Of a DNA stretch of 47,766 nt, positions 42,972-45,446 are shown one piece after another. The notes beneath the pieces are model-generated. The model was not told the DNA's origin, did not search any database, and was given only the letters and a program-made list of their open reading frames with translations. This DNA comes from a virus (lineage: Duplodnaviria > Heunggongvirae > Uroviricota > Caudoviricetes): IMG/VR virus record IMGVR_UViG_2541047895_000008, positions 1 through 47,766 of that record; one strand, given 5' to 3'. Numbering within the stretch: position 1 is the stretch's first letter; every line of letters starts with the position of its first letter. The position numbers and the translations under genes are program-made.

Positions 42972-45446
42972 ATGAGTAAAGTCTTTATTTGCGCCGCCAT
43001 TCCGGACGAACAGGCAATTAAGGAAGAAGGTGCAGTTGCTGTAGCCACTGCCATTGAAGCCGGTGACGAACGCCGCGCCCGCGCCAAATTTACCTGGCAA
43101 TTCCTGGAGCAATATCCGGCTGCTCAGGACTGTGCTTATAAATTTCTTGTCTGCGAGGATAAACCCGGCATGGCCCGCCCCGCCCTTGATTCCTGGGATA
43201 CCGAATATATGCAGGAAAACCGCTGGGATGAGGAATCCGCTTCCTTTGTTCCGGTCGAACCAGAGCCGAATACAGAAATTGTTAACTTTAACCAGTTATC
43301 CGACGACAAGCAGGCCGCTGTCCTCGTTAAGTTCGGCACACATGAAAACGTCACCGTGGATATGGTCATCAACGCAAGCGGGCTTCTTGGTGATGACGAC
43401 ATGATGACCTTTGACGGACACCTCGCAGAAGCAATTATCCGGACTAAAGAAATTAACGCCATGTATCCGGAACGTCAGATTGAATACATCAACGATGCCA
43501 GACGTGATTTAAAACCAACCGCCAAATGGCCCGACGTTCAGGCATATTTTCTCGACCGTAAAAAACGCCAGGAAAAGGATCGCAAAGAAGGTGGTGCATA
43601 TACTTCTGTTGTTGATCTTGCCCGCGCCAGAGTCAACCGACAGCACACTGAAAACTCAGCAGAAAAAATCAACCCTGTCACTACTGCCATTCGTCGCGAA
43701 TACAAGCAGACATGGAAAACGCTGGATGAAGAGCTGGCCTACTCTCTGTGGCCTGGTGACATTGATGCCGGAAACATTGACGGCAGCATCCATCGCTGGG
43801 CAAAAAATGAAGTTATCGAGAACGATCGCGAAGACTGGAAGCGTATTTCTGCATCAATGCGCAAACAGCCTGATGCCATTCGTTACGACCGTCAGACTAT
43901 TTTTGGCCTTGTCCGTGAACGTCCGATCGACATTCACAAAGACCCTGTGGCACTGAACAAATACATCACTGACTACCTGACTACAAAGGGCGTATTTGAA
44001 GATGAAGGAACAAATCAGAGCACAACTGATACTCTCCCGTCGCCAGTACCTGAAACTGATGCAGTGGAAACGGCAATGCCGGACAACGAAAAAACCGAAT
44101 GCGAAGTGGAAGTCGAACCATCTGTAGAGCGTGAGGGGCCGTTCTACTTCCTCTTCACAGATAAGGATGGCGAAAAATACGGTCGTGCAAACAAACTTTC
44201 AGGTCTGGAAAAGGCGCTGGCTGCCGGGGCTACTGAAATCACGAAAGAAGAATATTTTGCCCGTAAAAACGGCACATACTCAGGCTCACAACAAAATACT
44301 GGTGCGTCTGACACGGCAGCACAACCAGAGCCGGTAAAAGTTACCGCTGACGAAGTAAACAAAATTATGCAGGCAGCCAATATCAGCCAGCCTGACGCCA
44401 ATCAGTTGCTTGCTGCCTCTCGCGGAGAATTTGTTGCAGGGATTAGCGACCCGAATGATCCGAAGTGGGTGAAGGGAATTGAAACCCGCGATTCTGTGAA
44501 CCAGAACCAGCAAGAAACGGAACAGAACGACCAGAAAGCGGAGCAAAACAGCCCAAATACGCAACAAAACGAGCCAGAAACGAAACAATCCGAACCAGTA
44601 GCGCAACAGGAACCGGAAAAGATCTGCACCGCCTGCGGTAAGAGCGGTGGCGGCAACTGCCCTGATTGTGGCGCGGTGATGGGTGACGCAACATACCAGG
44701 AAACGTTCGATGACGAGAATCAGGTCGAAGTTCAGGAAGACGATTCGGAGAAAATGGAAGGCGCTGAACATCCACACAAGGAGAATGCGGGAAGCGCTCA
44801 GGGCCACGCCAGCGATAGTGAAACTGGCGAGGCGACAGATCCCTTAATTGCGGTGAACGGTCATCACGTTATCACATCCACCAGCCGGGTGTGGCACCAT
44901 CTGATGATCGATCTTGAAACGATGGGAACAAATCCTGATGCGCCAATCAACTCTATTGGCGGTAAATTCTTTGATCCCGAAACCGGAGAGATGGGGCCGG
45001 AATTTAGCAAGACCATCGATCTGGATACTGCTGGCGGAGTCATTGATCGTGACGTCATTAAATGGTGGCTTAAGCAATCACGCGAGGCGCAATCTGCCAT
45101 TCTGACCGATGAAATCCCGTTAGATGATGCATTGCTGCAATTGCGGGAATTTATCGATGAAAACTCCGGTGAGTTTTTTGTTCAGGTCTGGGGAAATGGA
45201 GCCAACTTCGACAACGTGATTTTACGCCGTTCATACGAACGGCAGGGGATCCCCTGCCCGTGGCGTTATTGCAACGATCGCGATGTGCGCACAATCGTTG
45301 AGCTGGGAAAAGCCCTGAACTTCGATGCCAGAACGGATATTCCATTCGAAGGTGAGCGCCACAATGCACTTGATGACGCCCGTTACCAGGCAAAATACGT
45401 TTCAGCTATCTGGCAAAAACTGATCCCGAGTCAGGCTGATTTTTAA
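42972..45446 (+). CDS. Large early protein with a C-terminal DEDDh-type 3'-5' exonuclease domain
   Basis: 824 aa; C-terminus has ..MIDLETMGT.., ..VWGNGANFDNVIL.. and ..HNALDDARYQ.. (DnaQ/RNase T-like motifs); central Q/E/N-rich acidic linker and a CxxC..CxxC ribbon. Confidence 0.6.
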   Translation: MSKVFICAAIPDEQAIKEEGAVAVATAIEAGDERRARAKFTWQFLEQYPAAQDCAYKFLVCEDKPGMARPALDSWDTEYMQENRWDEESASFVPVEPEPNTEIVNFNQLSDDKQAAVLVKFGTHENVTVDMVINASGLLGDDDMMTFDGHLAEAIIRTKEINAMYPERQIEYINDARRDLKPTAKWPDVQAYFLDRKKRQEKDRKEGGAYTSVVDLARARVNRQHTENSAEKINPVTTAIRREYKQTWKTLDEELAYSLWPGDIDAGNIDGSIHRWAKNEVIENDREDWKRISASMRKQPDAIRYDRQTIFGLVRERPIDIHKDPVALNKYITDYLTTKGVFEDEGTNQSTTDTLPSPVPETDAVETAMPDNEKTECEVEVEPSVEREGPFYFLFTDKDGEKYGRANKLSGLEKALAAGATEITKEEYFARKNGTYSGSQQNTGASDTAAQPEPVKVTADEVNKIMQAANISQPDANQLLAASRGEFVAGISDPNDPKWVKGIETRDSVNQNQQETEQNDQKAEQNSPNTQQNEPETKQSEPVAQQEPEKICTACGKSGGGNCPDCGAVMGDATYQETFDDENQVEVQEDDSEKMEGAEHPHKENAGSAQGHASDSETGEATDPLIAVNGHHVITSTSRVWHHLMIDLETMGTNPDAPINSIGGKFFDPETGEMGPEFSKTIDLDTAGGVIDRDVIKWWLKQSREAQSAILTDEIPLDDALLQLREFIDENSGEFFVQVWGNGANFDNVILRRSYERQGIPCPWRYCNDRDVRTIVELGKALNFDARTDIPFEGERHNALDDARYQAKYVSAIWQKLIPSQADF

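Follow-up and report, generated by a model that had tools for sequence, protein, structure and literature searches.

What could a RecE-like protein do in a prophage without an annealase gene, when the nuclease at its end is predicted to run opposite to that of RecE? The question is raised by a gene in the IMG/VR virus record IMGVR_UViG_2541047895_000008 (Caudoviricetes), of which the whole stretch of 47,766 nucleotides (nt; positions 1 to 47,766, hereafter the window) was analysed. The window holds a lambdoid prophage at tRNA-Ser beside mtfA, with a lambda-like head/tail region and early genes arranged as in Qin and Rac. The gene lies at 42972-45446 on the plus strand, starts with ATG and encodes 824 amino acids (aa) in the list of open reading frames (ORFs) of the window. 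A first-pass annotation, made from the letters alone, had reported this ORF as a multi-domain early protein. It is present exactly as described, and corresponds to the RefSeq coding sequence WP_021559926.1, with the product name "exonuclease".

A DnaQ-type exonuclease domain at the C-terminus

Judging from sequence and structural model, the C-terminal domain is a DnaQ-type DEDDh exonuclease with a complete active site and a predicted 3'-5' polarity. It matches Pfam PF16473 (Rv2179c-like 3'-5' exoribonuclease domain) end to end (aa 642-814, model 1-177 of 177, E=5.7e-64, 215.5 bits against a cut-off of 27). The D-x-E of Exo I (D647/E649), the Asp of Exo II (D747) and the H-x4-D of Exo III (H797/D802) are all present, in the catalytic columns of T4 DexA. 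Furthermore, the DEDDh residues are invariant or nearly so across nine aligned sequences. The domain and its catalytic codons are located as follows.

44895-45413, plus strand: predicted DEDDh 3'-5' exonuclease domain of the Rv2179c/DexA type (aa 642-814, Pfam PF16473)
44910-12, plus strand: codon of D647
44916-18, plus strand: codon of E649
45210-12, plus strand: codon of D747
45360-62, plus strand: codon of H797
45375-77, plus strand: codon of D802

The AlphaFold model of the domain extends over aa 640-822, with a predicted local distance difference test (pLDDT) score of 60-90. Its best PDB match by Foldseek was T4 DexA (8kel_A, E=9.7e-7). Next came a Cas2-associated DnaQ domain (8h2f, E=1.4e-6) and RNase T (3v9w, E=2.1e-6), and all three had a probability of 1.00. 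Oligoribonuclease and REXO2 were also strong structural matches. When the PDB was searched by sequence with the whole protein, T4 DexA was the sole match (E=2e-3). The DnaQ/RNase T-like DEDDh domain proposed in the first-pass annotation is borne out by these results. So is its remark that this is not the lambda Exo fold, as a phmmer search with RecE 600-866 finds nothing in the protein.

Of the solved structures, T4 DexA (exonuclease A, 8KEL), a phage early protein, is closest by both sequence and fold. The two differ in that DexA, at ~25% identity, is a stand-alone protein of 227 aa with extra loops, whereas here 640 more residues lie N-terminal to the domain. The annotated roles of DexA include host DNA degradation. 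Its residue W152, proposed to stack on 5-hydroxymethylcytosine (5hmC), aligns with C767, with Y766 adjacent; most relatives have W, Y or V. DexA D169, likewise proposed to take part in reading 5hmC, aligns with A781, in a poorly aligning loop region. The tetramer residue D90 is kept as D719 in both HMMER and MAFFT alignments, and the Asp loss of the EcD type is not seen. Another point of reference is Rv2179c of Mycobacterium tuberculosis, the founder of PF16473, whose family model is matched over its full length but which is a 3'-5' exoribonuclease by its Pfam name and description.

Members of this Pfam domain family also occur as stand-alone proteins of 180-190 aa (for example P0340, P0341, P0364, P0372, P0388, P0397, P0411 and P0412). 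They are frequent in enterobacteria such as E. coli, Salmonella, Klebsiella and related genera, and share 58-88% identity with aa 631-824. Some of them (start MIDLETMG) resemble the C-terminal domain of the long protein, as if it had been called or expressed alone. According to NAR 2025 (PMC12153337), an E. coli homologue of DexA named EcD digests T4 DNA in vitro and, when supplied on a plasmid, protects cells from T4; the same paper reports more bacterial DexA homologues from Escherichia than from any other genus. Unlike the 824-aa protein, the stand-alones are single-domain, and those starting with MNxLMIDLETMG have two features reported for EcD, a Trp at the W152 position and an Ala as residue 78. 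EcD is probably one of these stand-alone paralogues rather than a protein of the 824-aa type. Among the long proteins, a 752-aa relative (P0229) may be a catalytically dead DEDDh-tailed variant, because its catalytic Glu is replaced by Lys (DLKTMG) and its Exo II Asp by Ala (SFANV).

A non-catalytic region shared with RecE

RecE, the exodeoxyribonuclease VIII of the Rac prophage of E. coli K-12, is a workhorse of recombineering. As far as the alignments tell, the 824-aa protein shares much of the non-catalytic region of RecE, and differs from it in the first ~160 aa and in the nuclease. By BLASTP, query aa 263-627 match K-12 RecE 278-592 (E=1e-57), and the part from aa 475 to 627 is closely similar, including a Cys4 knuckle. 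Within it lies a segment that is close to Rac recE at the nucleotide level.

44406-44848, plus strand: segment close to Rac RecE, aa 479-625 (RecE aa 458-590), 73% nucleotide identity over 443 nt by blastn

The homology reaches further toward the N-terminus. In hhalign, columns 165-328 of a profile of distant relatives, which correspond to query ~160-346, aligned with RecE 175-360 at a probability of 99%. The NCBIfam RecE equivalog NF007259 matched aa 223-627 (model 246-603 of 877) with 269.6 bits, without reaching its cut-off of 1269. At the other end, the similarity stops at aa 625-627 (RecE 590-592), in a linker just ahead of both catalytic domains. This end, just before the catalytic domain, marks the domain-swap junction.

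The two proteins are alike in other ways. Both are long and acidic with a C-terminal exonuclease domain, and both genes sit in the early-left operon slot 3' of kil and 5' of xis/int. Unlike the DEDDh domain predicted here, the catalytic domain of RecE is a PD-(D/E)XK nuclease of 5'-3' polarity. In addition, recE is followed by recT, whereas the 824-aa gene has no annealase partner. The N-terminal domain of RecE itself was still "of unknown function" in a 2023 review (PMC11611040).

The catalytic head as an exchangeable cassette

An exhaustive HMMER search with aa 1-346 over 1.84 billion proteins yielded 168 representatives (50% identity clusters), and the modules of 150 representatives were mapped by phmmer with pieces of the query and of RecE. 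The family has two kinds of N-terminal head, "A", as in the 824-aa protein, and "RecE-N". It also has optional linker modules and a B module, which is common to nearly all members, RecE-type proteins included. The tails found on this shared scaffold are DEDDh, the PD-(D/E)XK of RecE, a DUF3799 PDDEXK-like tail, phrog_7838 and phrog_26058. A natural deletion variant, P0080, has its B module fused straight to the DEDDh domain. Because relatives attach various C-terminal tails to one set of scaffold modules, the family has a common RecE-type scaffold and, on it, an exchangeable catalytic head. A second protein search, with the profile of distant relatives, retrieved chiefly partial E. coli sequences and added little diversity.

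Other relatives carry tails of their own. In P0271 (Enterobacter cloacae, 555 aa), a ParB helix-turn-helix (HTH) domain (PF17762) replaces the nuclease behind the same N-terminal families (PF27430 and PF27432). The phrog_2489-type relatives P0135, P0139, P0142, P0149 and P0185 have a conserved tail of ~250 aa (PHROG 7838, labelled "exonuclease") with the motif KKSLTDAIKKALSLLGFSADVW, which is reminiscent of the Rad52/Sak annealase signature. An interpretation of this tail as a Rad52/Sak annealase is unsupported, as Pfam gave nothing at E<=10 and a PDB profile search no match. In hhalign against ul36 Sak, the motif alone aligned, at a probability of 0.1%; this likeness is unproven and was not used as evidence.

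An intact and widespread gene

The 2475-nt gene is 100% identical over its full length to positions 1460951-1463425 of NZ_CP027550.1 (E. coli 2015C-4136CT1). Similar DNA covers at least 80% of it in 3485 of 5426 complete E. coli genomes. Any match was found in 4501 of the 5426, though some of the partial ones will be recE or truncated copies. The hosts of similar DNA include prophages with Shiga toxin (Stx) or type III effector genes, and among isolated phages the gene is carried by Tritos, PhiR42_1, HannyBb and mEp460. The ORF is intact, at 823-830 aa, in 80 of the 80 related IMG/VR viral contigs that were examined. Compared with the orthologues of Tritos and PhiR42_1, the ratio of nonsynonymous to synonymous substitution rates (Ka/Ks) is 0.08-0.19 in the folded domains. 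Given these low ratios and the intact ORFs, the gene is a real coding sequence under purifying selection and no chance ORF.

E. coli K-12 retains a piece of the same gene. The pseudogene ydfE (b1577) of the Qin prophage is 70% identical to aa 1-256, and lies at the matching position in its operon (dicA, ydfABC, dicF, dicB, ydfD, ydfE, int). For these two reasons, the 824-aa gene is the intact form of ydfE. In K-12 the insertion sequence IS2E cut the gene after ~256 codons, and all downstream parts were lost, the nuclease included. A literature search on ydfE did not find a functional study.

The gene is already known, by its RefSeq annotation, a PHROG of its own, Pfam domain families and a Tritos orthologue in a published class. 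PHROG 2082 is matched end to end (aa 1-824 against profile 1-823 of 823, 1647.7 bits). As regards novelty, the identification of a standard known protein (PHROG 2082, WP_021559926.1) goes against the first-pass annotation. Its view that no family can be recognised in the N-terminal half is incorrect, since this half falls within PHROG 2082, is in part homologous to RecE and matches ydfE. It holds in that neither a function nor a solved fold is known for it.

Anatomy of the non-catalytic region

Two AlphaFold runs, one for aa 1-346 (42 sequences, pLDDT 85.7) and one for the full length (32 sequences, pLDDT 67.8), were mutually consistent. Together with the alignments, they divide the region ahead of the nuclease into the following parts.

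42972-43256, plus strand: alpha/beta head, aa 1-95 (pLDDT ~85-93, Ka/Ks 0.08)
43284-43655, plus strand: helical domain, aa 105-228 (AlphaFold helices 111-228), the most variable part of the protein
aa 229-247: disordered stretch in the AlphaFold anatomy
43713-43991, plus strand: helical B module, aa 248-340 (pLDDT ~90, Ka/Ks 0.13)
44007-44132, plus strand: acidic disordered linker, aa 346-387 (26% Asp+Glu; pLDDT <50 at 346-386)
44133-44276, plus strand: small beta-hairpin/helix "L" module, aa 388-435 (pLDDT ~80, strands 391-397 and 400-406, helices 409-432)
aa 439-548: mostly disordered (pLDDT <50)
44625-44669, plus strand: Cys4 knuckle CTACGKSGGGNCPDC, aa 552-566 (read from the sequence; pLDDT ~66)
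aa 573-637: acidic disordered linker (24% Asp+Glu over aa 573-640; pLDDT <50)

The head is strongly conserved and has no counterpart in RecE, the hhalign homology beginning near aa 160. It is the C-terminal helices of the following domain (aa 105-228) that start the RecE-homologous stretch. Part of this domain has diverged strongly: aa 101-220 (43272-43631) are 55% identical to Tritos, compared with 88-90% in the neighbouring domains, with a Ka/Ks of 0.42 and a Ks of 0.92. This suggests either an allelic or mosaic exchange or a specificity surface. The L module occurs in A-headed relatives, and the BLASTP alignment with K-12 RecE consists mainly of gaps there, with no clear counterpart.

No structural relative was found for the scaffold. 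A Foldseek search with the model of aa 1-346 gave nothing significant (best E=2.4 in the PDB and 0.21 in BFVD), and the first ~90 aa showed a weak PII-like/ferredoxin-like resemblance only (E>2 against the PDB). A local Pfam scan assigned no family to the N-terminal 640 aa. PF27430 and PF27432 appear as precomputed labels on homologues.

The acidic linker of the first-pass annotation is confirmed, and in fact there are two such stretches. The whole protein has a net charge of -62 and an isoelectric point (pI) of 4.6. The zinc ribbon that had been proposed fares less well. A Cys4 motif exists (C552-x2-C555-x7-C563-x2-C566, a putative zinc site), and a minimal zinc knuckle is plausible. Among 71 full-length representatives the motif is confined to the protein's own cluster and absent from 70, and for this reason it is not a family-wide feature; K-12 RecE has it too.

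The operon and its Chi sites

The gene is the last large gene of an early-left operon repressed by a DicA/cI-type repressor, in the order ydfABC, dicF, dicB remnant, kil, exonuclease gene, xis and int. The same order is found in Tritos and PhiR42_1, in which dicB and ydfD are intact, and in K-12 Qin. The operon of the window is a Qin/Rac hybrid, with a Rac-type kil where Tritos and Qin have dicB and ydfD.

40469-40723, minus strand: cro/dicC-like gene, divergent from the repressor gene (RefSeq)
40803-41222, plus strand: DicA/cI-type repressor, head of the early-left region (RefSeq)
41521-42054, plus strand: ydfA-like (DUF1391), ydfB and ydfC, upstream in the same operon (RefSeq)
42396-42447, plus strand: intact DicF small RNA (Rfam RF00039, 76.7 bits, E=4.4e-16)
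42517-42600, plus strand: dicB remnant, between DicF and kil
42627-42848, plus strand: kil, Rac KilR-type FtsZ inhibitor, directly upstream of the gene (RefSeq; PHROG 294, E=7.9e-33)
45505-45708, plus strand: excisionase (DUF4224), directly downstream (RefSeq; PHROG 1266 "excisionase")
45708-46758, plus strand: tyrosine integrase, frameshifted per RefSeq (longest ORF 45708-46733, 341 aa)
46786-46875, minus strand: tRNA-Ser attachment site

Neither the RefSeq annotation of the whole window nor PHROG scans of the unnamed early genes revealed an annealase, a single-strand DNA-binding protein (SSB) or an anti-RecBCD gene. This agrees with the first-pass annotation, which had seen no annealase gene in the window. 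The related loci paint a similar picture. None of the 80 related viral contigs has a RecT or a RecE-type nuclease within 6 kb. Upstream, 75 of them have dicB and ydfD; downstream, the element ends after xis and int. Upstream ORFs of at least 150 aa in these contigs are mainly repressor/HTH proteins with a few unknown ones, none annealase-like, although no family-library scan was made. Predicted promoters and terminators near the gene were about as numerous as in shuffled sequence.

A pattern search found 12 Chi sites (GCTGGTGG) in the window against 1.74 expected, and none of 100 shuffled sequences reached 12. Ten of them are on the minus strand, the top strand of the phage as oriented by the strand of the terminase and late genes, and two on the other. 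All lie in the early/lysis half.

26585-45574, mostly minus strand: cluster of 12 Chi sites, with zero in 1-26584 (late genes)
44878-44885: Chi inside the exonuclease gene
45567-45574: Chi inside xis

This combination has a published counterpart. Genome Res 2025 (PMC12315714) describes a class of four phages, with Tritos as the prototype, that have a nuclease, lack a single-strand annealing protein, an SSB and an anti-RecBCD function, and carry 7-21 top-strand Chi. The prophage of the window shows both the gene content and the top-strand Chi pattern of this class. Tritos TRITO_27 and its orthologues in PhiR42_1, HannyBb, mEp460 and PPompW prophages are similar over the full length, at 84-88% nucleotide identity, and have the same flanking genes. 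Nothing essential sets the window apart from Tritos, beyond the divergent allele of aa 101-220 and the Rac-type kil in place of dicB/ydfD.

Possible function

The most likely role, which we put forward tentatively and at a little less than even confidence, is that of a 3'-5' exonuclease acting on DNA ends as an accessory to host RecBCD/RecA during lytic growth. It would be recruited by its scaffold, and would not work like RecET. A Red/RecET-type annealing machine is argued against by the lack of an annealase and of a RecBCD inhibitor, and by the many Chi sites, whose orientation would make them act on RecBCD that comes in from the right cos end. The protein would be made after induction or infection, and would degrade DNA from 3' ends in a metal-dependent manner. 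Its N-terminal scaffold would hold the nuclease near the site of action through a putative partner. There, it could process ends for recombination-dependent replication by RecBCD/RecA, for example by trimming 3' tails to give RecBCD substrates, and possibly also degrade host DNA as DexA does. In PMC12315714, Chi-rich lambdoid phages without a RecBCD inhibitor are proposed to grow recombination-dependently via RecBCD, and DnaQ-like nucleases are described in Rec modules. The first-pass annotation had suggested recombination, anti-defence or nucleic-acid processing. This was too broad to be wrong, and of the three the evidence favours a role linked to the recombination module.

Several points weigh against this proposal. 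The same paper (PMC12315714) states that 3'-5' exonucleases usually inhibit homologous recombination. A pI of 4.6 is unusually acidic for a DNA-binding protein. The fold of the scaffold resembles nothing solved. RNA could be the substrate, since it was an exoribonuclease that gave the Pfam family its name and RNase T matches the domain closely in structure. The case for cooperation with RecBCD is one of co-occurrence only. Finally, neither a biochemical nor a genetic test of the 824-aa protein, or of any full-length orthologue, was found in the literature.

Other explanations start from the same domain. As a homologue of DexA borne on a prophage, the protein might be a defence nuclease of the HREX type, which digests the 5hmC DNA of superinfecting T-even phages and spares host DNA. 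The protection from T4 by EcD and the many stand-alone versions in enterobacteria fit this idea. We nevertheless consider it unlikely. W152 aligns with C767 and, in an uncertain alignment, D169 with A781, and the tetramer residue D90 is retained (as D719) instead of being lost as in the EcD type. EcD is itself probably of the stand-alone type and not of the 824-aa type, and PADLOC-DB 2.0 gave no defence family at E<=0.01. Moreover, because the gene sits in a repressor-controlled early-left operon, as judged from gene order, expression in the lysogen is not expected. The likeness to DexA could instead point to a scavenging exonuclease that supplies nucleotides from host DNA for phage replication and has no role in recombination. 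DexA is the best relative by structure and by PDB sequence, host DNA degradation is among its annotated roles, and the gene is an early one. This seems quite unlikely to us, as the RecE-type scaffold and the position in a Rec module point to transactions at DNA ends, and no partner endonuclease adjoins the gene. In addition, no temperate lambdoid phage is known to degrade the host chromosome.

An RNA 3'-exonuclease of the Rv2179c/RNase T type, acting for example on the long dicBF-operon transcript or on host RNAs in lytic growth, would agree with the name of PF16473, with the strong matches to RNase T, oligoribonuclease and REXO2, and with co-transcription with the processed DicF. However, DexA is the closest relative to have been characterised and its substrate is DNA, a DNA recombination nuclease has the same scaffold, and no specific link to DicF was seen; we therefore regard this as improbable. 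Slightly less probable again is an anti-defence factor, in which the acidic scaffold or the nuclease would disable some component of host immunity, for example through degradation of DNA- or RNA-based immune molecules or the masking of DNA ends. The place in the early operon, the long acidic disordered stretches, the N-terminal half without a solved fold match and the hypervariable aa 101-220 (Ka/Ks ~0.1 elsewhere) could be read in this way, the last as a surface shaped by an arms race. The argument is purely circumstantial, no known anti-defence homology was seen, and the high Ks of the variable region suggests mosaic exchange over positive selection. At the far end of the scale, the prophage might be cryptic and the gene a decaying relic that no longer has a function. 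In K-12, ydfE is a pseudogene cut by IS2, and the prophage of the window has a frameshifted integrase, an IS110 element and several broken cargo genes. This last explanation is disfavoured by intact ORFs, here and in the 80 viral contigs, and by purifying selection; all catalytic residues are present and the gene occurs in viable isolated phages, which makes it very improbable.

Other features of the prophage

In the early-right region, an IS110-family transposase gene is inserted, flanked by the replication genes on one side and an HTH gene on the other, which is one sign that this copy of the prophage may be defective. It may also be unable to excise, because the integrase is marked as frameshifted in RefSeq, though the exonuclease gene is intact. 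The virulence cargo comprises type III effector genes beyond the tail fibres and a sodC gene inserted among the tail genes. Three tRNA genes stand downstream of the gene for the Q antiterminator, an arrangement shared with Stx-type lambdoid phages. A second prophage nuclease, outside the early-left operon, is the DUF968 protein beside RusA.

1-2406, minus strand: virulence cargo, with nleH (frameshifted), an nleC fragment and nleB2 (intact)
8534-9061, plus strand: sodC
31769-32018, minus strand: three tRNA genes (Arg, Arg, Ile)
33281-34339, minus strand: DUF968 protein, matching PHROG 96 "HNH endonuclease" end to end (E=2.8e-164)
36876-38114, minus strand: IS110-family transposase

Implications for lambdoid phages and the RecE family

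The function of this protein matters for several reasons: the gene is very common, it shares a region with RecE, the predicted polarity of its nuclease is opposite to that of RecE, and it has no annealase partner. The binding target of the scaffold could explain the difference in behaviour between full-length RecE and its nuclease domain alone. The role of a 3'-5' exonuclease in Chi-rich phages without Gam bears on the proposal that such phages exploit RecBCD rather than inhibit it.

A wider reading, possible but doubtful in our view, would extend to the whole family. The RecE-type scaffold (the PF27430/PF27432 region plus the B module) might be a general adaptor that brings interchangeable DNA-processing heads, such as the 5'-3' PD-(D/E)XK, the 3'-5' DEDDh and other tails, among them one with a faint likeness to Rad52/Sak annealases and one with the ParB HTH, to one target of the host or the phage, located at DNA ends or replication forks. 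The DEDDh version, of which about two thirds of the complete E. coli genomes carry 80% or more, would then define a pathway, never studied so far, by which lambdoid phages recombine or restart replication independently of an annealase and in cooperation with RecBCD and Chi.

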